From: an uncultured Comamonadaceae bacterium
GTDB lineage: Bacteria; Pseudomonadota; Gammaproteobacteria; Burkholderiales; Burkholderiaceae_C
Direction of reading: 5' to 3'
Assembly: GCA_937868695.1 (NCBI GenBank)
Contig: CALMMY010000464.1
Coordinates: 1 to 19,757, forward strand
Length of the DNA stretch: 19,757 nt
In this document: piece after piece, positions 9,443-19,757 of the stretch
How the letters are laid out: the number at the start of each line of letters is the position of its first letter
Numbering within the stretch: the stretch's first letter is position 1
Position numbers and translations under genes: made by a program
The notes under the pieces: model-generated
Databases searched by the model: none
The model's input: only the letters and a program-made list of their open reading frames with translations
What the model was told of the DNA's origin: nothing

Positions 9443-10066
9443 GTGAGTCATTCAAGTTTTATCAGCCGCACGGTCATCGTCGGTTTGACATCGTTGGTTG
9501 CCTTGGGTTGGAGCGCCAGCTCCTGGGCACAGGCCGATGAGGCACGCGCCAAAAAAATTGCCGGTGGTTCATGCTTTCTGTGCCACGGCGCACAGGGCGA
9601 ATCCACCAGCGAAATTTTTCCCCGCCTGGCGGGCCAGAATGCCGCCTACGTGGCCAAGCAGCTGCTGGCGTTTCAGACAGGTGCCCGCAAAAGCACGGCC
9701 ATGGCCGACATGACCGCCAAGCTGACACCCGATGAAATGATGGCACTGGGTCGTTACTACCAGAAGATGGAACTGCCGCGCGAAGAGCCGAAAGAACCCC
9801 AACTGGCGGCAATGGGCCACTACATCTACCACAACGGCAACAAGTTCAGCGGTGTGCCCGCTTGCGCGGCCTGCCACGGCGTGACCGCAGAAGGGGCCGA
9901 CAACCTGCCCCGCCTGGGCAGGCAAATTGCGGGCTATCTGGAGAACCAGCTCAAGCTGTTCAACAAGCGCGACCGCACCAACGACAACGCGGTGATGCAC
10001 ATGGTGGCCGAAAAAATGACCCCGCTTGAAATGCACGCTGTGGCGGAATACCTCAGCGGCAAATAA
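9443..10066 (+). CDS. Diheme cytochrome c4-type protein, 207 aa.
   Basis: Two CxxCH motifs (CFLCHG, CAACHG), one in each half. Signal peptide ...LVALGWSASSWAQA. GTG start at 9443 with AAAGG/AGGAA upstream. Stop TAA at 10064-10066. Confidence 0.78.
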   Translation: MSHSSFISRTVIVGLTSLVALGWSASSWAQADEARAKKIAGGSCFLCHGAQGESTSEIFPRLAGQNAAYVAKQLLAFQTGARKSTAMADMTAKLTPDEMMALGRYYQKMELPREEPKEPQLAAMGHYIYHNGNKFSGVPACAACHGVTAEGADNLPRLGRQIAGYLENQLKLFNKRDRTNDNAVMHMVAEKMTPLEMHAVAEYLSGK

Positions 10067-10100
10067 CGCGATCTGAACTTCAAAACTGTGTGAAGCCTTC

Positions 10101-10132
10101 GGGGCCATGCCAACGCGGCATGGCCCTTTTTT
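10101..10132 (+). terminator. Rho-independent terminator: stem GGGGCCATGCC, loop aacgc, closing arm GGCATGGCCC, then TTTTTT.
   Basis: Perfect 10-11 bp GC-rich stem followed by a 6-T run at 10127-10132, 35 nt after the c4 stop. It lies in the 73-bp convergent gap before the pgk stop at 10140. Confidence 0.65.
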
Positions 10133-10139
10133 CATGGCA

Positions 10140-11333
10140 TCAGCCTGCGCGGCGGGCCAGCACTTCGAAGGCGGGCAGGGTCTTGCCTTCCAGCACTTCC
10201 AGGAAGGCACCGCCGCCGGTGCTGATGTAGCCCACTTGCTTTTCAATGCCGTACTTGGCAATGGCCGCCAGCGTGTCGCCACCACCGGCGATGCTGAAGC
10301 CCGCGCTGTCGGCAATGGCCTGGGCTATTCCCCTGGTGCCGTTTTCGAACTTGGCGAACTCGAACACGCCCACGGGGCCGTTCCAGACGATGGTGCCGGC
10401 CTTCATCAGCTGCGCGGCCAGCTTGGCAGCGGTTTCGGGGCCGATGTCCAGAATCAGGTCGTCATCGGCCACATCGGTGGCGGCCTTGACGGTGGCTTCA
10501 GCGTCGGGGCTGAAGGCTTTGGCGCACACCACGTCGGTGGGAATCGGCACCTCTGCACCACGTGCTTTCATGGCCTCGATCACGGCCTTGGCTTCACCCA
10601 CCAGGTCGGGTTCGGCCAGGCTCTTGCCGATGCTCAGGCCCGCAGCCAGCATGAAGGTGTTGGCGATGCCGCCGCCGACGATCAGGCCATCAACCTTGCT
10701 GGAGAGGGCTTGCAGGATGGTGAGCTTGGTGCTGACTTTGCTGCCCGCCACGATGGCGATCAGTGGGCGCTGTGGGTTGGCCAGGGCTTTGCCGATGGCA
10801 TCCATTTCAGCGGCCAGCAGTGGGCCTGCGCAGGCGATGGGTGCGGTTTCGGCGATGCCGTAGGTGGTGCCTTCTGCGCGGTGGGCGGTGCCAAAGGCAT
10901 CGTGGACGAAGATGTCGCACAGCTTGCCCAGCTTTTCGGCCAGTTCGGGTTTGTTTTTCTTCTCGCCTTTGTTCAGGCGGCAGTTTTCGAGCATGACGAC
11001 TTCGCCGGGGGCGACGCTGAAGTTGCCGTCCACCCAGTCGGCCACCAGGCGCACGGGTGCGCCCAGCAGTTCGCTCATGCGGGCGGCCACGGGGGCCAGG
11101 CTGTCTTCGGGCTTGAACTCGCCTTCGGTGGGGCGGCCCAGGTGGCTGGTCACCATGACGGCGGCACCGGCTTCCAGTGCCATCTTCACGGCGGGAATGC
11201 TGGCGCGGATGCGGGTGTCTTCGGTGATCTCACCGGCATCGTTCTGCGGTACGTTCAGGTCGGCGCGGATGAACACGCGCTTGCCCGCAGCCTGACCGCT
11301 GGCGATGACATCGGAAAAACGGATGAATTTCAT
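10140..11333 (-). CDS. pgk: Phosphoglycerate kinase, copy 1, 397 aa.
   Basis: N-terminus [29 protein letters not shown] is the classic PGK N-terminal substrate-binding motif. Full-length PGK fold motifs are present (e.g. GGGDT... region, GGGAFLE). AAGGAG RBS 7 nt before ATG 11333. Stop TGA at 10142-10140. Confidence 0.93.
10140..11333 (-). repeat. Direct repeat copy A, the whole pgk CDS. It differs from copy B at 9 positions, all within the terminal 132 nt and 84 nt.
   Basis: By-eye alignment with 18479-19672 finds mismatches only at 10146, 10176, 10178 and three more sites up to 10271, then at 11250, 11295 and 11304. Positions 10272-11249 are identical. The flanking sequence outside the CDS is unrelated. 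Confidence 0.85.
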
Positions 11334-11366
11334 GGTTTAGCTCCTTGGTGTTGTGAAAAACGATCA

Positions 11367-11395
11367 AACAATGATTGGAATACCCCGATTGTCAA
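11367..11395 (-). promoter_or_regulatory. Candidate promoter for pgk copy 1: perfect -35 TTGACA (11395-11390), 17-nt spacer, weak -10 ATTGTT (11372-11367).
   Basis: Read on the minus strand within the 83-bp gap between the HK stop and the pgk ATG. The -10 is poor, so this is tentative. Confidence 0.25.
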
Positions 11396-11416
11396 CCCTC
11401 AGCCTGACGACAGCAC

Positions 11417-13498
11417 TCAGCCCAGCACGGGCAGGCACAGGCTGAAGCTGACTCCATCGGCCTGGTTGCTGGCGGTGATGGTGCCGCCCATCTTGGCCAT
11501 GTAGGTTTTGGCCACAAACAAGCCCTGCCCCCGGCTGCCTGCCGCTGCCGCATCGGGCTGGTCTGACACGCCGTACTCGAAGATTTTTTCCAGCATATCG
11601 GCGGGAATGAGTGGCCCGTGGTTGTGGATGGTGACGGTGGCATGGTGCCCGTCGGTGGCCAGGCGCAGCGTGATGGCAGTGCCGGGGCTGCGGTGGCGCT
11701 CGGCATTGGCCAGCAGGTGGCCGAACACATCTTCCAGCGGGTATTCGTCGGCCCGCACCCAGACGGGCTGGTTGCAGCCACTGCACACCACATCGGCAAT
11801 GCCCGCGTTCTCGGCCACGTTGCGCACAAACCTGGCCAGATCCACGGCGGCCACCTCGAACTGGCTGCGCTCAAACGCTTCGCTGGGGCTGGCGCTGCCG
11901 TAGAGCACGCGCACCGCCTGCTGCATGCGGCTGATGTAGCGGTGGCTGGGATCATCGGCCTGGCCGTGCAGGGCCAGCAGGCTTTGCAGCGGCGACATGA
12001 TTTCGTGGCCCACGGCGTGCCACATGTCTTTTTCCTGCCCGGCGCGGATTTTTTCGCGCCCGGCATCCTCGCGCACCCGGCGCAGCAGCTCGTTGAGCGC
12101 GGTGGCCAGCAAGCCCAGCTCGTCATGGCCGCGCAGGTCGGCCAGCTGGTAGCGCTCCAGCCCGCCCTCGGTCTGCACCGATTGCGACAGCCCCCGCGTG
12201 CGCCGCGTCAGGCGGGCAATGCGGTGGATCAGCCCCACCTCGATCACCAGCCAGGCCAGCGCGATGGCCCCCAGCATGGCCCCCACAAACCACGACAGGC
12301 GCGTGGCCACCACCGACAGCGTCTGGTTGACGCTGCGGGCATCGCCGCGCAGTTGCAGCTCGTAACTGCCCAGCGGCGTGCTGATGACCTCGTTCAGCGC
12401 CACCTCCGGGGTGTCGATCTGCTGGACCGGCAGCTTCAGGATGAGGCGGGTGAGCAGGGGCGACGAGGTTTCGTGCGCCTCGTCACGCCCGGCAATGCGG
12501 GCAATCTCCTGTGCTGCGCCCGGTGTGCCGCCGTGACGGCGGATCACCAGACTTTCACCGGGTAGCAGCAGACCGGCCAGCTGGTCCAGCGCAAAGGGAG
12601 CCAGGCCATCGGTGCGCTGGCTGTCGAACAGCGCTGGCCCGTCGCCGGGCGGCAGCGCCTCGATGCGCACCTCGAACTGATCCAGATCGGGCGGCGGCCA
12701 CACCGGCCTGGCCTGCTGGAACAGGGCCTCGCGCAGCGCCTCAACGGGCAGGCGCAGCGAGAAAAAGGCTTTTTTCGGGCAGCTGTCGCGGTCGGTAGCC
12801 TCAGCGTCTGCGCACGCCCCGCTCTGCCACACCCAGCCACGGAACTCGCGCACCGGGCGGGTACCGGTGTAGTCGCGGCCAGGCAACTCGGCATAGCCGG
12901 TGAAGCGGCCACGCAAGCCCTCGTTGCGGGCATTGGCCGCTGCGGGCAAGGCCTCGAACGGGGCCAGCCACTGCCAGCTCTGCCCGCGCAGGCTGACGCG
13001 CACACGCAGGCGGTGGGCCGTGTCCAGAAACTCGTCGCCGATGCGGTGGGCTTGCAGCGGCCCGCTGGCAAAGGTACCGGCGGCGTAGATGAAACCACCA
13101 GCCCAGGGGTTGTTGCCAATAGCCACGCACAGACTGGCATCGCCGGGGTAATGCACCAGGCAACCCGACATTTCAATGGCGCTGCGCACCTTGCTCTGGT
13201 CATCGAAATCGAGGGCCGCGTACGGCAGCACCACCGGGCGGCCACGCGCTGCCGCCGCCAGGTTCCAGCCGGGGTTGAGCAGCGCCAGCTGGCCCGCCGG
13301 GTGGTGCAGCCGGGCCAGAATCTGCTCGCGGGTTTTGTCCAGGCTGTGGCGGTAGTTGTCGTAGCTGCGCTGCTTTTCTTCCTGCAACACCGTCACCGTC
13401 ATGGCCAGCACCGTCAGCGCCAGCAGCAGAAACGCCGTGCGTAGCAGGATGCGCAGCCGGAACGAGGCCAGCCAGGCCAGCAGCGCCCTGGCCGTCAT
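11417..13498 (-). CDS. Sensor histidine kinase, 693 aa. It has two TM helices flanking a periplasmic domain of about 360 aa with no family I can recognise, then HAMP-like, HisKA and HATPase_c domains.
   Basis: TM1 LLRTAFLLLALTVLAMTVTVL. TM2 LSWFVGAMLGAIALAWLVIEVGLI. H-box MWHAVGHEIMSPLQSL. ATPase G-box ...GQGLFVAKTYMAKMGGTI. The ATG overlaps the RR stop (ATGA). Confidence 0.85.
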   Translation of the reverse strand: MTARALLAWLASFRLRILLRTAFLLLALTVLAMTVTVLQEEKQRSYDNYRHSLDKTREQILARLHHPAGQLALLNPGWNLAAAARGRPVVLPYAALDFDDQSKVRSAIEMSGCLVHYPGDASLCVAIGNNPWAGGFIYAAGTFASGPLQAHRIGDEFLDTAHRLRVRVSLRGQSWQWLAPFEALPAAANARNEGLRGRFTGYAELPGRDYTGTRPVREFRGWVWQSGACADAEATDRDSCPKKAFFSLRLPVEALREALFQQARPVWPPPDLDQFEVRIEALPPGDGPALFDSQRTDGLAPFALDQLAGLLLPGESLVIRRHGGTPGAAQEIARIAGRDEAHETSSPLLTRLILKLPVQQIDTPEVALNEVISTPLGSYELQLRGDARSVNQTLSVVATRLSWFVGAMLGAIALAWLVIEVGLIHRIARLTRRTRGLSQSVQTEGGLERYQLADLRGHDELGLLATALNELLRRVREDAGREKIRAGQEKDMWHAVGHEIMSPLQSLLALHGQADDPSHRYISRMQQAVRVLYGSASPSEAFERSQFEVAAVDLARFVRNVAENAGIADVVCSGCNQPVWVRADEYPLEDVFGHLLANAERHRSPGTAITLRLATDGHHATVTIHNHGPLIPADMLEKIFEYGVSDQPDAAAAGSRGQGLFVAKTYMAKMGGTITASNQADGVSFSLCLPVLG

Positions 13499-14199
13499 CG
13501 ACCGCTGCCCTCCACCCAGCGGAAACCGCGCATGGGCACGTTTTCGATGCGGTCAAAGTGTTCGTCCAGCTCGCGGAAAGCCTCGCGGATGGTGCTGATG
13601 TGCTTGCGGATGTTGTCGCGGTTGCGCCCGCTTTTGACCACGGCAAACAGCTCGTCGTAAGACACCACCTCGCCCCGGCGCTGGTACAGGGTGGACAGGA
13701 TGCGCTGCGCCGTCAGCGGCAGGTTGACCCGCTTGCCGCACCACAGCGGCGTGCTCTGGCGCAGGGGGTCAAGGGCCAGCTCGTGGGCGGCGGGCTCGGG
13801 GTGGCGGGGGGGGCTGCGCTCGCGCCCGGCACGCAGGATTTCGAGGAATGTCTCGATGAAGTCGGCCTCCTCGAAGGCGGTTTTTTGCAGGTAATCCCAG
13901 GCATCCAGCGCTTTCATGATGCTGCGGTAGATGGCCGCCGGCATGGCCGACACCACCAGCACCGGCGTGCCGCGCCCGGTCTTGTTGATGGCGTTGATGA
14001 TGGCCACGCCCGCGTGGCGCTCGCGCCCCAGCTCGATGTCCAGCGTCACCAGCGCGTAATCCTCACGGCCAATGGCGGCCTCGGCATCGTCGCGGTTGAA
14101 CCACTGATCCACCACGATGCCGGGCCGGGCGGACTCGATCCAGTGCTTCAGCTGGTTGCTGGTGGGAATGTCGTCCTCGATGACGGCAACTCGGGTCAT
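13495..14199 (-). CDS. OmpR/PhoB-family response regulator (REC plus winged-helix Trans_reg_C), 234 aa.
   Basis: True start MTRVAVIEDD at ATG 14199 with AAGGAG RBS. Phospho-acceptor context VTLDIEL. Conserved K in MKALDAWDYLQK. C-terminal wHTH LTAQRILSTLYQRRGEVVSYDELFAVV...IENVPMRGFRWV. The ORF-track frame extended 28 codons upstream, which I rejected. Confidence 0.85.
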   Translation of the reverse strand: MTRVAVIEDDIPTSNQLKHWIESARPGIVVDQWFNRDDAEAAIGREDYALVTLDIELGRERHAGVAIINAINKTGRGTPVLVVSAMPAAIYRSIMKALDAWDYLQKTAFEEADFIETFLEILRAGRERSPPRHPEPAAHELALDPLRQSTPLWCGKRVNLPLTAQRILSTLYQRRGEVVSYDELFAVVKSGRNRDNIRKHISTIREAFRELDEHFDRIENVPMRGFRWVEGSGR

Positions 14200-14489
14200 G
14201 GGCAGCTCCTTGAGGGCATCTCGGGGGCCTCTCGTGCAGGCGAGACGGCGGGTCGGTCGGCAAAGTATCCCGGTTTTTGCCACCCGGCAGCGGTGGCCGG
14301 TGTGAGTGTTTCTTCACGCCCGTGAAGCGTCTGGCAGTGCGGCGAACCAAAGTCGCCTCGCGGCGGCATGGCTTGCTCCGGCCCTCCCGTCGCACCATGA
14401 CAGCCATGCCAACGCACTGGTTGCCACCGTCTTCCGACCAGCGCCCAGACGATGCCAACCAACCGAAGACACCTCAACCGGAGAACACC

Positions 14490-15773
14490 ATGAGCGAACG
14501 TTTTGAACACATCCTGAACACCCTGGGCCACGGGCTCAGCCGCAGCGGCCAGGCCCTTGGCAGCGGAGCCATCACCGTTGGCCGAACCATCCACGGCGCA
14601 CGCCGCAGCCTGATTGCCATCGCCGTGGTGGGCCTGTGCGGCTATGCCGCCTACCGGCACCCGCCCATGCAGGGTGTGGAGCGCGGCGAGGTGGCTGTGC
14701 GCATCAACCAGCTCACTGGCAACAGCGCCGAAATGCGCGAAGGCGCGGTGCTGGTCATCCCCGGCCTGCACGAGCTGCGCCGCTTCAGCCTGCGCGACCA
14801 GGTGTACCGCCCCGAGGCAGGCCAGGAAGCCCCGTTCCAGAGCATCGAAGGCCTGTCGCTGGGCGTGGACGTGACGGTGCGCTACGCACTGGACCCGGCC
14901 CGCATTGCCGCCGTGGCCCGCAACCTGCCCGACGACATCGGCCACCAGGTGGTGGAGCCCGCCGTGCAGGGCGTGCTGTACAAAACCTTCTCGCGCTACA
15001 CGGTGCGCGAGATTTTTTCAGCCAAGCGCCAGGAAATCCGCGACAGCATCGAAGCCGAAGTGCGCACCGCCCTCGACCGGGACGGCATCCGGCTCCAGGC
15101 CGTGCTGATTGGGCGGGTCGATCTGCCTGACGACTACCGCGCCGGCATGGACAGGATGCTGGCCGAAGAACTGTCGAGCGAAAAGATGCGCTACACGCTG
15201 GATCTGAAAGAAAAGCAAGTCAAGCAAAGCGATCTGGAAGGCGAAGCCGACAAGGTGCGCCGCGAAAAGGCCGCAGAAGCCGCAGGCCAGGAACAGATCA
15301 TTGCCGCCAAGGCCCAGGCCGAGGCCATGAAGCACATCCTGCCCTTCAAGCAAAAGCAGATCGAGCAGCGCGGCCTGGAGGCCGAGGCAGAAAAGGTGGC
15401 CCGCATCAAGAGCGCCGAAGCCAATGCCCAGGCCCGCCAGATCGAGGCCGTGGGCGAGGCCGAATCGCGCCGCAAGCTGGCCGATGCCGAAGCCTACCGC
15501 CAGGAACGCCTGGGCAAGATTGCCAGCGAGCAGCTGGCCCGCGATGGCGCACTTATCCAGCACAACCCGCTGCTGATCCAGAAGGCCATGGCCGACAAGC
15601 TGTCGGACAAGATCTCCGTGATCATCGCACCCACCCCCACCGATGGCGGCTTCATCGGTGCGGCCCTGCTGGGTACCAAGGCCACACCGCCCACACCGAC
15701 CGCCCAGCCACAGATGCCCATGCAGCCCCTGCTGCCCGCAGATGGCACCGACAACGGCCAGACCGAGCAGTGA
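14490..15773 (+). CDS. SPFH/band-7 (prohibitin/flotillin-like) membrane protein, 427 aa.
   Basis: GGAGAA RBS before ATG 14490 (MSERFEHIL...). N-terminal TM SLIAIAVVGLCGYAAY. SPFH core. A long Glu/Ala-rich coiled coil carries two tandem 36-aa repeats (DLEGEADKVRREKAAEAAGQEQIIAAKAQAEAMKHI and GLEAEAEKVARIKSAEANAQARQIEAVGEAESRRKL). Pro/Thr-rich tail. The ORF-track frame began 71 codons upstream with no SD. Confidence 0.85.
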   Translation: MSERFEHILNTLGHGLSRSGQALGSGAITVGRTIHGARRSLIAIAVVGLCGYAAYRHPPMQGVERGEVAVRINQLTGNSAEMREGAVLVIPGLHELRRFSLRDQVYRPEAGQEAPFQSIEGLSLGVDVTVRYALDPARIAAVARNLPDDIGHQVVEPAVQGVLYKTFSRYTVREIFSAKRQEIRDSIEAEVRTALDRDGIRLQAVLIGRVDLPDDYRAGMDRMLAEELSSEKMRYTLDLKEKQVKQSDLEGEADKVRREKAAEAAGQEQIIAAKAQAEAMKHILPFKQKQIEQRGLEAEAEKVARIKSAEANAQARQIEAVGEAESRRKLADAEAYRQERLGKIASEQLARDGALIQHNPLLIQKAMADKLSDKISVIIAPTPTDGGFIGAALLGTKATPPTPTAQPQMPMQPLLPADGTDNGQTEQ

Positions 15774-15816
15774 GCCTGCACACCCGTACCGCACCCGACT
15801 GCTGAAAGGACACACC

Positions 15817-17268
15817 ATGCTGGTCACCGCACTCGCCGCCATTGCCATCGTCACCCAGGACCAGAGTGCCCTGCGTGCTGCCCCCAGGGACTCCGCCGCA
15901 CAGCAGGCCATGTTCTGGCAGGGCGACACGCTGGAAATCCGGGGCGAAAAAGGCGACTTTCTCCAGGTGTACGACCACCGCCGCGAGCGCGGCGGCTATG
16001 TGCGCGCCAGCCAGGTGCGGGTGCAGCCGCTCACCCCCGAGGCAGCCCCCGACCTGTTGGGCACCGTGCGCTTTCTGAAAGACATGCCCGGCACCGAAGC
16101 CCTGGGCATGGCCTACGCCGCCGCCTACCTGCGGGCCGCACCGGCACCGGCCATCCACAGCGATGTGTTCGATGCACTCAGCGCCATGTCGGAGCGCCTG
16201 GCCAACCGCGCCACCGCAGGCCGCCCTGGCAAAGCCGGTGAAGCCCTGTCCGCCCACCTGGAAGTGGCGGCCAGCCACGGCGTGACCATGACCAGCTTCG
16301 AGCGCGACGGCCAGATTCAGCTGTGCCCGAATGGCGATGCGGCCCGGCGCGTGCTGGCCCTGCCCGCCACCGATTTGCAAAAAGCCCAGGCCGCCCTGTC
16401 GCTGACCCGGCACGAATGCGTGTCGCCCGCCCTCACGCCCACCGAACGCTTTGCCCTGGACAACTGGCGTGCCGAGGTGCTGGACAGGGTGCAGACCGCC
16501 CGCCTGCCCCCGGTGTGGCAAAACCGCCTGCACCTGCGCAAGGCGGGCGTGTGGGCCAGCCTGACCTACCAGCGGGCACGGCGCAGCGAGCCCGGCGCAC
16601 CCGCCGTTGCCGAAGCCGCCCACCGCGCCATTGACGCGCTGGCCGCCGCCAACCCCCAGGAGCTGATGGAAAGCGATGCCGCTGCCCGCAACGACGCGGC
16701 CATCCGCGTGGGGGCATCGCGCTGGGGTGCCGTGCCCGCCATCACACCCACAGCAACCCCACCCGCCCCCGGCAAGGACGGCAGACCCACCATCGTGCTG
16801 ACCGCCGGGGAACCGGGCGAAACCTGCGTCAACCTGGTCGATGCCACCCACGATGCCCGCCAGCCCCTGCTGCGGCGCTGCACCTGGGGCATCGTCTGGC
16901 AGGCATCGCTGGCCGTGTCACCCCAGGGCGATGCGCTGGCGCTGGCCGTGCAGCCGCTGGACCAGTGGCGCGAGATGTGGGTGTTCCGCCAGACAGGCAG
17001 CGGCAATGGCTGGCAGGTGGATGCCGTGCCACCGGGCACCGAGGCGGGTGCGCCGGGTTACATCGAATTTGCGGGCTGGGTGCCCAACACCCGGCTGATG
17101 CTGGCCGCCCGCGAGGTGCAGACCGGCGGCCGCCACCGCACCACCTTTGAAACCCTGCACCTGGCCACCCTGGCAACCGAAAAGCAGGCCGACCAGCCCT
17201 CCAGCCTGAGCGCCTTCTACCGCTGGCAGAACCCGCTGTGGAAGGCTGGCACCGTCAGTTTGCGCTGA
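15817..17268 (+). CDS. Hypothetical secreted protein, 483 aa, with N-terminal signal peptide and an SH3b-like domain. The remainder is unassigned.
   Basis: AAAGGA RBS 6 nt before ATG 15817. Signal-like MLVTALAAIAIVTQDQSALRAAP. SH3b-like region WQGDTLEIRGEKGDFLQVYDHRRERGGYVRASQVRV. Starts 43 bp downstream of the SPFH gene, so probably co-transcribed. Stop TGA at 17266-17268. Confidence 0.7.
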   Translation: MLVTALAAIAIVTQDQSALRAAPRDSAAQQAMFWQGDTLEIRGEKGDFLQVYDHRRERGGYVRASQVRVQPLTPEAAPDLLGTVRFLKDMPGTEALGMAYAAAYLRAAPAPAIHSDVFDALSAMSERLANRATAGRPGKAGEALSAHLEVAASHGVTMTSFERDGQIQLCPNGDAARRVLALPATDLQKAQAALSLTRHECVSPALTPTERFALDNWRAEVLDRVQTARLPPVWQNRLHLRKAGVWASLTYQRARRSEPGAPAVAEAAHRAIDALAAANPQELMESDAAARNDAAIRVGASRWGAVPAITPTATPPAPGKDGRPTIVLTAGEPGETCVNLVDATHDARQPLLRRCTWGIVWQASLAVSPQGDALALAVQPLDQWREMWVFRQTGSGNGWQVDAVPPGTEAGAPGYIEFAGWVPNTRLMLAAREVQTGGRHRTTFETLHLATLATEKQADQPSSLSAFYRWQNPLWKAGTVSLR

Positions 17269-17278
17269 GGGCTGCGGT

Positions 17279-18346
17279 TCAGGCCACACGCGGAGCCAGT
17301 TCGCCCTTGTCATAACGGCGCTGCATGGTCTCCAGGCTGTACACCTGTGTGATGCGGCTGGCCATGCCTGCGCTGCCGAAGGCTTCGTAGCGGGCGGCGC
17401 AGATGCCTTTCATGGCCTTGGTGGCTTCCTTGTAGAACTTGCGGGGATCGAAGTTCTTGCGATCCTGCGCCAGGTGCTGGCGAATGGCGCCGGTGCTGGC
17501 CATGCGCAGGTCGGTGTCGATGTTGACTTTGCGCACGCCGTTCTTGATACCTTCGACGATTTCCTCCACCGGCACGCCGTAGGTCTGGCCCATGTCGCCG
17601 CCGTAACTGTTGATGATGGCCAGCCAGTCTTCGGGCACGCTGGAGCTGCCGTGCATCACCAGATGCACATCGGGAATGCGGGCGTGGATTTCCTTTACGC
17701 GGTCAATCCGCAGCACCTTGCCGGTGGGCTTGCTGGTGAATTTGTAGGCACCGTGGCTGGTGCCGATGGCGATGGCCAGCGCGTCCACCTGGGTTTTGGC
17801 CACAAAGTCGACGGCCTCGTCGGGGTCGGTCAGCAGCGCGGAGTGATCCAGCACGCCTTCGGCCCCGTGGCCGTCTTCTTCACCGGCCTTGCCGGTTTCC
17901 AGGCTGCCCAGGCAGCCCAGCTCGCCTTCCACCGACACGCCGCAGGCATGGGCCAGGTCGGCCACATGGCGGGTGACGCGCACGTTGTAGTCGTAACTGG
18001 CGGGGGTTTTGCCGTCTTCCAGCAGGCTGCCGTCCATCATCACCGACGAAAACCCCGACTGGATGGAGCGGAAACACACGCCGGGCGACGCGCCGTGATC
18101 CTGGTGCATGCACACGGGGATGTGGGGGTACATCTCGATGGCGGCCAGAATCAGGTGGCGCAAAAACGGCTCGCCCGCATACGAACGCGCCCCGGCCGAG
18201 CCTTGCAGGATGACGGGCGAGTTGACGGCATCGGCCGCCTGCATGATGGCCTGCACCTGCTCCATGTTGTTGACGTTGAAAGCAGGCAGGCCGTAGCCGT
18301 TTTCAGCTGCGTGGTCCAGCAGTTGACGAAGAGAAATCAGGGCCAT
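17279..18346 (-). CDS. fba: Fructose-1,6-bisphosphate aldolase, class II (Fba/CbbA type), 355 aa.
   Basis: Class II aldolase signatures: N-terminal ...[14 protein letters not shown], metal/His motifs HQDHG and HGSSSV, and ...[19 protein letters not shown] before ATG 18346. Stop TGA at 17281-17279. Confidence 0.92.
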
Positions 18347-18437
18347 GGTGGCTCTCCGGAAAAATTACAAGACAAAAAGGGCCTCAACGCCTGACTGGCA
18401 AGCGATATAAGCTACAGAAATAAATGCTGGTATGTTC

Positions 18438-18464
18438 GTTCAGCCAGGCCCAGCCCGGCTGAAC
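18438..18464 (-). terminator. Hairpin downstream of the pgk copy 2 stop (GTTCAGCC, 11-nt loop, GGCTGAAC). Possible weak terminator or processing site in the pgk-fba spacer.
   Basis: 8-bp perfect inverted repeat at 18438-18445 and 18457-18464, with a flanking ATGTTC/GAACAT extension. There is no clean U-tract, only a moderately T-rich stretch on the minus strand. Confidence 0.25.
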
Positions 18465-18478
18465 ATGCCGGGCGGCAC

Positions 18479-19672
18479 TCAGCCAGCGCGGCGGGCCAGC
18501 ACTTCGAAGGCGGGTAAGGTCTTGCCTTCCAGCACTTCCAGGAAAGCACCGCCGCCGGTGCTGATGTAGCCCACCTGCTTTTCAATGCCGTACTTGGCAA
18601 TGGCCGCCAACGTGTCGCCACCACCGGCGATGCTGAAGCCCGCGCTGTCGGCAATGGCCTGGGCTATTCCCCTGGTGCCGTTTTCGAACTTGGCGAACTC
18701 GAACACGCCCACGGGGCCGTTCCAGACGATGGTGCCGGCCTTCATCAGCTGCGCGGCCAGCTTGGCAGCGGTTTCGGGGCCGATGTCCAGAATCAGGTCG
18801 TCATCGGCCACATCGGTGGCGGCCTTGACGGTGGCTTCAGCGTCGGGGCTGAAGGCTTTGGCGCACACCACGTCGGTGGGAATCGGCACCTCTGCACCAC
18901 GTGCTTTCATGGCCTCGATCACGGCCTTGGCTTCACCCACCAGGTCGGGTTCGGCCAGGCTCTTGCCGATGCTCAGGCCCGCAGCCAGCATGAAGGTGTT
19001 GGCGATGCCGCCGCCGACGATCAGGCCATCAACCTTGCTGGAGAGGGCTTGCAGGATGGTGAGCTTGGTGCTGACTTTGCTGCCCGCCACGATGGCGATC
19101 AGTGGGCGCTGTGGGTTGGCCAGGGCTTTGCCGATGGCATCCATTTCAGCGGCCAGCAGTGGGCCTGCGCAGGCGATGGGTGCGGTTTCGGCGATGCCGT
19201 AGGTGGTGCCTTCTGCGCGGTGGGCGGTGCCAAAGGCATCGTGGACGAAGATGTCGCACAGCTTGCCCAGCTTTTCGGCCAGTTCGGGTTTGTTTTTCTT
19301 CTCGCCTTTGTTCAGGCGGCAGTTTTCGAGCATGACGACTTCGCCGGGGGCGACGCTGAAGTTGCCGTCCACCCAGTCGGCCACCAGGCGCACGGGTGCG
19401 CCCAGCAGTTCGCTCATGCGGGCGGCCACGGGGGCCAGGCTGTCTTCGGGCTTGAACTCGCCTTCGGTGGGGCGGCCCAGGTGGCTGGTCACCATGACGG
19501 CGGCACCGGCTTCCAGTGCCATCTTCACGGCGGGAATGCTGGCGCGGATGCGGGTGTCTTCGGTGATCTCACCGGCATCGTTCTGCGGCACGTTCAGGTC
19601 GGCGCGGATGAACACGCGCTTGCCCGCAGCCTGGCCGCTGGCAATGACATCGGAAAAACGGATGAATTTCAT
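18479..19672 (-). repeat. Direct repeat copy B, the pgk CDS within the gap-pgk-fba context.
   Basis: See copy A. Same orientation, 8339 bp centre-to-centre. Confidence 0.85.
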
Positions 19673-19678
19673 GACCAT
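18479..19678 (-). CDS. pgk: Phosphoglycerate kinase, copy 2. The protein is identical to copy 1 over the 397 shared residues.
   Basis: Same PGK sequence as copy 1. I prefer the start at ATG 19678 (MVMKFIRF...) because GGAG sits 8 nt upstream. ATG 19672 (MKFIRF) is the alternative. The ORF-track frame extends further into the gap 3-prime end, which I rejected. Stop TGA at 18481-18479. Confidence 0.9.
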
Positions 19679-19692
19679 GGTGCGTACTCCGT

Positions 19693-19757
19693 TCAACCGG
19701 CCACCACGCGAGCCATCTCCAGGCACTTGTTGGAGTAGCCCCACTCGTTGTCGTACC
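19693..19757 (-). CDS. gap: Glyceraldehyde-3-phosphate dehydrogenase, 3-prime end only (C-terminus ...[20 protein letters not shown]).
   Basis: Translating the minus strand gives the conserved GAPDH C-terminal signature YDNEWGYS. Stop TGA at 19695-19693, 14-20 nt upstream of the pgk start. This is the classic gap-pgk linkage. Confidence 0.7.

Follow-up and report, generated by a model that had tools for sequence, protein, structure and literature searches.

Two pgk genes at one Calvin-cycle locus of a Hydrogenophaga-related bacterium are probably kept alike by intragenomic recombination

How can two copies of a gene at one bacterial locus be identical throughout their middle and still differ from each other at both ends? 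This question is raised by the window, by which we mean the whole 19,757-nucleotide stretch analyzed here (contig CALMMY010000464.1 of assembly GCA_937868695.1, from an uncultured Comamonadaceae bacterium): it carries two genes for phosphoglycerate kinase (pgk), and both products match Pfam PGK (6.3e-137). The explanation that we consider likely is that pgk occupies two old positions, whose sequences are kept near-identical by homologous recombination within the genome, and that the same repeats also allow deletion. The elements in question are the following:

10140-11333, minus strand: pgk copy 1, 397 residues, located between a histidine kinase gene and a convergent cytochrome c gene
18479-19672, minus strand: pgk copy 2, 397 residues when started at the ATG at 19672, located between gap and fba
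10272-11249, minus strand: core of copy 1, 978 bp, identical to 18611-19588 by exact comparison
18611-19588, minus strand: core of copy 2, 978 bp, identical to 10272-11249 by exact comparison

Each pgk reading frame comprises 1194 nt, and the spacing between the copies is 8339 bases; an earlier interpretation of the letters alone (the sequence-only reading) had given the correct coordinates, and the strand is here amended to minus for both genes. Exact comparison of the copies yields nine mismatches in 1194 nt, at positions 30, 39, 84, 1063, 1098, 1128, 1156, 1158, and 1188 of the coding sequence, all of which are synonymous: as the sequence-only reading had described, they cluster at the gene ends and are not spread evenly. 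The identical core and the unrelated flanks were likewise found as described, with the reservation, voiced already at that time, that the zero in the core may partly be a product of the assembly. Identity of the flanks is at the random level (24-41% over 40-200 nt on each side), and the outermost bases common to both copies are the ATG and the stop codon. Since copy 2 has two possible start codons, the further claim that the two proteins are identical holds only for a start at 19672: a second in-frame ATG is found six bases upstream at 19678, and a GGAG at 19687-19690 lies 8 nt upstream of the ATG at 19678 and 14 nt upstream of the ATG at 19672. Judged by this arrangement, the product of copy 2 may have 399 residues (MVMKF...), two more than that of copy 1; the 399-residue form with its MV extension is the gene-caller version in other assemblies.

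Are the two copies actively kept alike? We compared them with public contigs from other samples whose pgk is 95-99% identical at the DNA level and which we refer to as same-species contigs (designated by L numbers; L084 stems from the assembly of a public sequencing run, Logan). Within the window, copy 1 and copy 2 differ at 9 sites, none of which falls into the 978-bp core. Copy 2 and the pgk of L176, which has the same position and the same spacers, differ at 42 sites (36 in the core), and the differences between copy 1 and its counterparts amount to 17 for L002 (11 in the core), 20 for L001 (13), 22 for L003 (16), 34 for L165 (28), and 54 for L166 (47). In the one strain for which this comparison is available, similarity within the genome hence exceeds similarity between strains at the same position, synonymous sites included. 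Because both positions and their spacers are common to divergent strains, independent evolution predicts at least 11-47 core differences, and the Poisson probability of observing zero is 2e-5 to 4e-21. Moreover, a mismatch-free run of 978 nt has a probability of about 2e-6 given nine randomly placed sites, and a Sawyer-type permutation over 116 species-variable sites, 100 consecutive ones of which are concordant between the copies, gives P<1e-6. Nearly all of these 100 concordant core sites are synonymous, so that the likeness goes beyond constraint at the protein level; with 0.102 polymorphic sites per nt in the species versus 0.074 in the ends, the core is as polymorphic as the ends, which argues against simple constraint as the cause of its identity. 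Each of the nine sites at which the copies differ also varies elsewhere in the species, with its states mixed across flank types; the one site that strictly tracks the flank is 1188, at a distance of six bases from the stop codon. Repeated exchange between the positions, least of all at the edges, leaves such a pattern, and the contrast of within-strain with between-strain differences is the signature of concerted evolution by gene conversion. The proposal of the sequence-only reading that conversion has homogenized two older paralogues is accordingly strengthened by the same-position comparisons (17-54 differences as against 9).

The mechanism and its direction are what we infer from these patterns. 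Both pgk positions would predate the divergence of the sampled strains, and gene conversion of the RecA type would keep the two coding sequences nearly identical. Since conversion tracts stop where homology ends, sites close to the start and stop codons would be converted least and retain their differences, and the middle would be homogenized. One might object that the coding sequence was duplicated very recently and that no conversion took place, the end differences being later mutations or imports anchored in the unique flanks. Such an event would agree with an identity of at least 95% over the whole coding sequence and with the common N-terminus of the pair, whereas pgk pairs of related genomes are 30% diverged over the first 70-80 nt, and it would agree with the segregation of all nine variant sites in the species. 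The duplication, however, predates the split of the strains, as the gap-pgk and pgk-fba spacers are found in L176 and every strain sampled at the pgk-cytochrome c junction shares it: in L176, a gene with 36 core differences occupies position 2 between identical spacers, and position 1 is present in all strains. Filling an occupied position with the sequence of the other copy is gene conversion by definition, and no obvious mechanism would confine a duplication to precisely the stretch from start to stop codon. We therefore consider a conversion-free origin very improbable.

If the copies recombine, is the segment between them variable as well? It is bounded and composed as follows:

19693-19757, minus strand: 3' end of gap (cbbG-type GAPDH); the window stops inside the gene
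17279-18346, minus strand: fba, class II fructose-bisphosphate aldolase of the Calvin-cycle (cbbA) type, Pfam F_bP_aldolase 4.3e-93
11417-17268, no single strand: strain-variable 5.9-kb island of four genes, not in L166 and L167
9443-10066, plus strand: dihaem cytochrome c gene (cytc in the gene orders), convergent with copy 1 and first gene of the fccAB/sox side

Among the same-species contigs, four gene orders are found:

gap-fba-pgk-cytc: L166 and L167; L001 begins with sequence that matches this fba-pgk spacer
gap-fba-island-pgk-cytc, without a pgk between gap and fba: L165
gap-pgk-fba-island-pgk-cytc: the window
gap-pgk-cytc: L168, L177, and L178, from three other metagenomes (L177 and L178, from two studies, are the same in sequence)

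The copy 1 site, that is the pgk-cytc junction, is filled in every same-species contig that reaches it (L001-L003, L165-L168, L177, and L178). As an amendment to the sequence-only reading, it is copy 1 and not copy 2 that is present in every strain sampled at the copy 1 site. The copy 2 site is the one at which related species keep their only cbb-linked pgk (the order gap-pgk-fba, followed by a convergent cytochrome c gene, occurs in L004, L005, L006, L008, L043, L089, L096, L169, and L180 of other species), and it is empty in some strains. Directly behind its stop codon, copy 1 is followed by sequence with homology to what comes directly after the fba stop codon in L005, which places copy 1 and the island in the former fba-cytc spacer. 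In the other species, this spacer holds different cargo: a 379-residue and a 231-residue reading frame in L004 (2787-4933), a 237-residue and a 453-residue reading frame in L043 (2382-4495), an MFS transporter gene in L169 (8362-9609), and a 600-nt non-coding stretch in L096 (12291-12899). It looks like an insertion hot spot.

Reciprocal recombination between the 1.2-kb direct repeats would remove fba and the island and leave gap-pgk-cytc behind. A recombinant of precisely this composition exists: L168, L177, and L178 each consist of the gap flank, pgk, and the cytc flank, which bears out the earlier suggestion that the segment between the repeats is variably present. In contigs without copy 2, gap ends in GCTGGCTGA, a sequence that also forms the final nine bases of copy 2, whereas gap ends in GCCGGTTGA in contigs with copy 2. 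In strains without copy 2, moreover, the gap-fba spacer can be aligned with the spacer downstream of copy 2 (shuffle P 0.01-0.03), but not with the upstream one. This gap end and the spacer alignment suggest that a two-copy ancestor may have given rise to the single-copy orders, through a deletion between the similar 'Ala-Gly-stop' ends of gap and pgk.

Might the two-copy order itself be a construct, in which a gap-pgk-fba strain was joined to a gap-fba-island-pgk-cytc strain via their common fba, so that no two-copy genome exists? Single-pgk strains with different gene orders do coexist in the species, and fba is the least conserved part in comparisons of the window with L165 and L166 (95.6-95.7% versus 97.5-97.8% elsewhere). 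All junctions of the window, however, recur in other contigs: gap-pgk-fba in L176, gap-pgk also in L168, L177, and L178, and kinase-pgk-cytc in L003 and L165, while L084 covers, without a break, everything from the pgk 3' end to the kinase, fba and the island included, and is 99.2% identical to the window. Assembled 3' ends of the kinase gene always lead into pgk-cytc (window, L003, and L165), and no same-species strain was found in which cytc directly follows fba. A chimeric contig is therefore very unlikely.

The coexistence of several orders could also be interpreted more dynamically: The pgk repeats, instead of being passive leftovers of duplication, would serve as recombination handles through which the population reversibly gains and loses the Calvin-type aldolase together with the sensory island. 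That the locus behaves in this way strikes us as highly improbable, and just as little would we expect excision, re-integration, or tandem amplification to occur at appreciable frequency. Were it so, conversion would be favored because it keeps the handles functional, and the four gene orders would be states of a single switchable locus. A comparison of the 32 nt upstream of copy 1 with all other pgk upstream regions gave nothing significant; the comparison of the copy 1 leader with the gap-pgk spacer of L004 yielded a shuffle P of 0.065, and the best scores fell on assorted loci.

Returning to conversion as the favored explanation, we asked whether the same pattern is found outside this species. 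The sequence-only reading had regarded identical paralogues this close to each other as unusual; in this clade, near-identical pgk pairs are not unusual: three related genomes have a cbb-linked and a housekeeping pgk at unrelated loci, and all three pairs show the mosaic pattern. Contig CAWKRC010000004.1 (4.55 Mb) has its two copies at a distance of 3.8 Mb, with 1085 nt identical and 24 of the 25 differences within the first 81 nt. In Hydrogenophaga sp. NFH-34, an isolate whose copies lie inside contigs of 222,679 and 238,571 bases, 23 of 71 differences are within the first 69 nt, and in the metagenome-assembled genome (MAG) JAYSGB01 the stretches 85-634 and 912-1147 match perfectly and the ends diverge strongly. 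A distance tree of PGK does not group the loci by genomic context. The only stable paralogue-specific part is formed by the first ~18 residues: cbb-linked enzymes begin with MKFLRFSDVC.SGFAR (L005, L006, L008, L021, L043, L089, L096, L169, and L180), housekeeping enzymes with M(K/Q)F(I/L)RFSDLC..G(Q/K)A (L010, L020, L026, L085, L171, and L179), and the species of the window as well as L004 have a GQA-type N-terminus at the cbb position. The two copies in the window have one N-terminal type in common, which identifies them as a younger, intra-locus pair and not as the old pair of cbb and housekeeping genes.

The species of CAWKRC010000004.1 is also represented by three contigs in which the pgk flanks are swapped (L170 3075-4268, L173 1579-2772, and L174 740-1933): they join the 5' flank of the cbb gene via pgk to the 3' flank of the housekeeping gene (with a LysR gene), or the housekeeping 5' flank via pgk to the cbb 3' flank (with fba). 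Such contigs must be chimeras that the assembly created across the identical core, or else genuine reciprocal recombinants. A further observation concerns the neighboring gap, whose 3' part holds the ends of five independent contigs, the window included (window 19693-19757, L168 1-82, L043 1-80, L004 1-241, and L005 1-520). This accumulation suggests a long identical stretch in common with a second gap gene, and gap (cbbG) may be a second concertedly evolving pair.

How far, then, can the assembly be trusted? A number of points weigh against our interpretation, and most of them concern the assembly. The identity of the core is known from an assembled contig, in which zero differences are inseparable from collapse, and the placement of both copies on one molecule rests on the same contig. 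The window stops 85 nt upstream of copy 2, inside gap, as do L168 (82 nt) and L043 (80 nt), and this proximity of ends suggests that the window represents a complete short-read contig whose assembly was halted by another repeat. From the unique flanks, all nine differences can be reached in steps of at most 45 nt, as a collapsed edge would give; the flank-swapped short-read contigs L170, L173, and L174 illustrate that such joins can be artefacts, and the gap-pgk-cytc contigs could in principle be misjoins, too. Finally, every other strain contributes the sequence of only one position, and concerted evolution is thereby established for the window strain only.

Most of these points converge on a specific alternative, namely that both copies are real and the de Bruijn graph merged their core into one edge that was walked twice. 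Gap, repeat, unique segment, repeat, and cytc would then form a simple loop, of the kind that certain assemblers pass through a single time while writing the merged edge twice, the identity would exist by construction, and only variants reachable from the flanks would have been kept. Contig breaks are in line with this: the pgk 5' end is where L001 and L002 break off, and L084 begins exactly 30 nt before the paralogue-specific site 1156, as would a break in a graph with k=31. On the other hand, collapse requires that differences between the copies are more than one k-mer apart and can thus have hidden at most about 7-17 sites in the 978 bp, a number that falls well short of the 36 core differences separating copy 2 from L176. 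In view of this limit, the conclusion of homogenization stands. In addition, the 1085-nt identity in the related species spans copies 3.8 Mb apart on a single 4.55-Mb contig, and the divergent edges also occur in isolate NFH-34 with both copies inside large contigs. Collapse is possible, if doubtful; should it have happened, 'perfectly identical' may have to be read as 'nearly identical', with conversion still supported.

In which context do the two genes operate? The host is a sulfur-oxidizing, CO2-fixing betaproteobacterium of the Comamonadaceae close to Hydrogenophaga: the nearest genomes are Hydrogenophaga-like Comamonadaceae, with a PGK identity of 94-95% for two MAGs and 84-89% for Hydrogenophaga. 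Read along the minus strand, the 3' end of gap is followed by pgk copy 2, fba, the island, and pgk copy 1; convergent with copy 1 are the genes for the dihaem cytochrome c, flavocytochrome c sulfide dehydrogenase, and ArsR as well as soxCDYZAXB. A complete gap gene precedes pgk in L176 and fba in L166. The latter contig (PGK 98% identical) reads LysR | HAD-rpe-FBPase-PRK-tkt-HAD-gap-fba-pgk, which shows the locus to be the end of a cbb operon abutting the sox genes; this gene set, together with a window fba that reaches NCBIfam TIGR01521 with 643 bits (cut-off 496), marks the gap-pgk-fba end of such an operon. No RuBisCO genes lie within the stretches that we read. An enrichment of pgk has been reported for Calvin-cycle-positive genomes (PMC7895386). 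Copy 2 would be co-transcribed with the cbb operon and copy 1 transcribed separately. The remaining features around copy 1 and in the island are:

11334-11416, minus strand: spacer upstream of copy 1, with AAGGAG at 11341-11346 and TTGACA at 11390-11395
10101-10127, plus strand: G+C-rich hairpin with a T-run between the cytochrome c gene and copy 1
11417-13498, minus strand: histidine kinase gene of the island
13495-14283, minus strand: gene for an OmpR-type response regulator of the island
14277-15773, plus strand: gene for an SPFH/Band 7 protein of the island
15643-17268, plus strand: gene for an island protein of unknown family

The sequence-only reading had credited copy 1 with a putative promoter. 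This was not recovered: a sigma-70 consensus scan of 9900-19757 returned no promoter-like site, and what is left is the strain-conserved TTGACA, which recurs in the fba-pgk spacer of island-free strains.

The four island genes travel together as a strain-variable unit. About 580 N-terminal residues of the kinase are without domain assignment, and the protein encoded at 15643-17268 (483-541 residues) has no match in Pfam, NCBIfam, or PADLOC. We considered the island as a defense system and discarded this idea: PADLOC and NCBIfam recognized no known system among its proteins and returned only generic two-component matches and one sub-threshold match. Base composition was likewise set aside as a sign of foreign origin, because the signal is weak (G+C 0.68 versus 0.60-0.65 around, with similar third-position G+C) and the absence of the island from L166 and L167 is the better evidence. 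Across 160 related genome and metagenome loci, the module of kinase, regulator, and SPFH gene was not found next to pgk outside this species, which argues against kinase and pgk having been taken over jointly from another known locus. A metagenome scan of the JGI collection returned no same-species contig (best PGK match 92%). Positions 1-160 of L003 are unlike the kinase at 12582-12741 of the window, the remainder of L003 being 98.6% identical, and the product called at the mismatching end has a weak Cons_hypoth698 match: the sensor part of the kinase may be strain-variable, or the end of L003 chimeric. In L165 (2100-2492, compared with 17269-17320 of the window), which has the island and lacks copy 2, fba is called with 347 instead of 355 residues, its last 100 nt show 31 differences from the window, and a 340-nt A+T-rich stretch separates fba and island; the left island junction hence differs between L165 and the window.

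How does this pair compare with known cases? The closest parallel is tufA/tufB of Salmonella enterica and Escherichia coli: two genes of ~1.2 kb whose identity is confined to the coding sequence, with unrelated flanks and a handful of differences. In Salmonella, conversion is confined to the homologous stretch and becomes less frequent towards the gene ends (PMC5485169). The tuf copies, however, are 762 kb apart and inverted, whereas the pgk copies are direct repeats 8.3 kb apart, so that crossing-over deletes or amplifies the segment between them. Furthermore, the tuf duplication is ancient and fixed and its conversion has been modeled and measured experimentally (PMC5485169), whereas copy 2 of pgk is found in some strains only and conversion is deduced from sequence comparison. 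The criterion used by Wang and Chen (2018) in their survey, which arrived at 26 concertedly evolving prokaryotic genes such as amoCAB, haoA, and psbD (PMC6053082), applies to pgk as well: paralogues within a genome are closer to each other than to their syntenic orthologues, and this extends to synonymous sites. The main text of the survey does not name pgk (PMC6053082). The products of most of the 26 genes are parts of complexes; PGK, by contrast, is a central-metabolism enzyme that acts as a monomer.

Within the clade, the Hydrogenophaga-like pairs of cbb and housekeeping genes share with the window pair the gene, the clade, and the mosaic. They differ in that they lie at distant loci and have paralogue-specific N-termini (GFAR versus GQA/GKA) with ~30% divergence over the first 70-80 nt, whereas the window pair has one N-terminus and both copies in one locus. 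Cupriavidus necator H16, a facultative autotroph of the Burkholderiales, resembles the window host in having Calvin-cycle gap, pgk, and fba beside housekeeping genes: its cbb operons are duplicated on chromosome 2 and the megaplasmid pHG1, each with cbbG-cbbK-cbbA. There, however, whole operons are doubled on two replicons, whereas the window repeats only pgk, within one operon end.

What we describe is concerted evolution of the classical kind, for which gene and clade provide new examples: pgk, a gene of central metabolism, joins the short list of concertedly evolving bacterial genes. The relatives indicate that concerted evolution of pgk is recurrent in Hydrogenophaga-like autotrophs, where it takes place between Calvin-cycle and housekeeping copies. 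Since pgk trees of this clade reflect genomes and not the history of the paralogues, they are unfit for naively tracing the origin of cbb operons. Repeats of 1.2 kb also break or misjoin short-read assemblies, and contigs that end at pgk or swap flanks across it are common in public data. The structural variation among strains fits recombination between the pgk repeats, and the locus provides a compact natural case in which conversion, repeat deletion, microhomology deletion, and island insertion come together among strains of one species.

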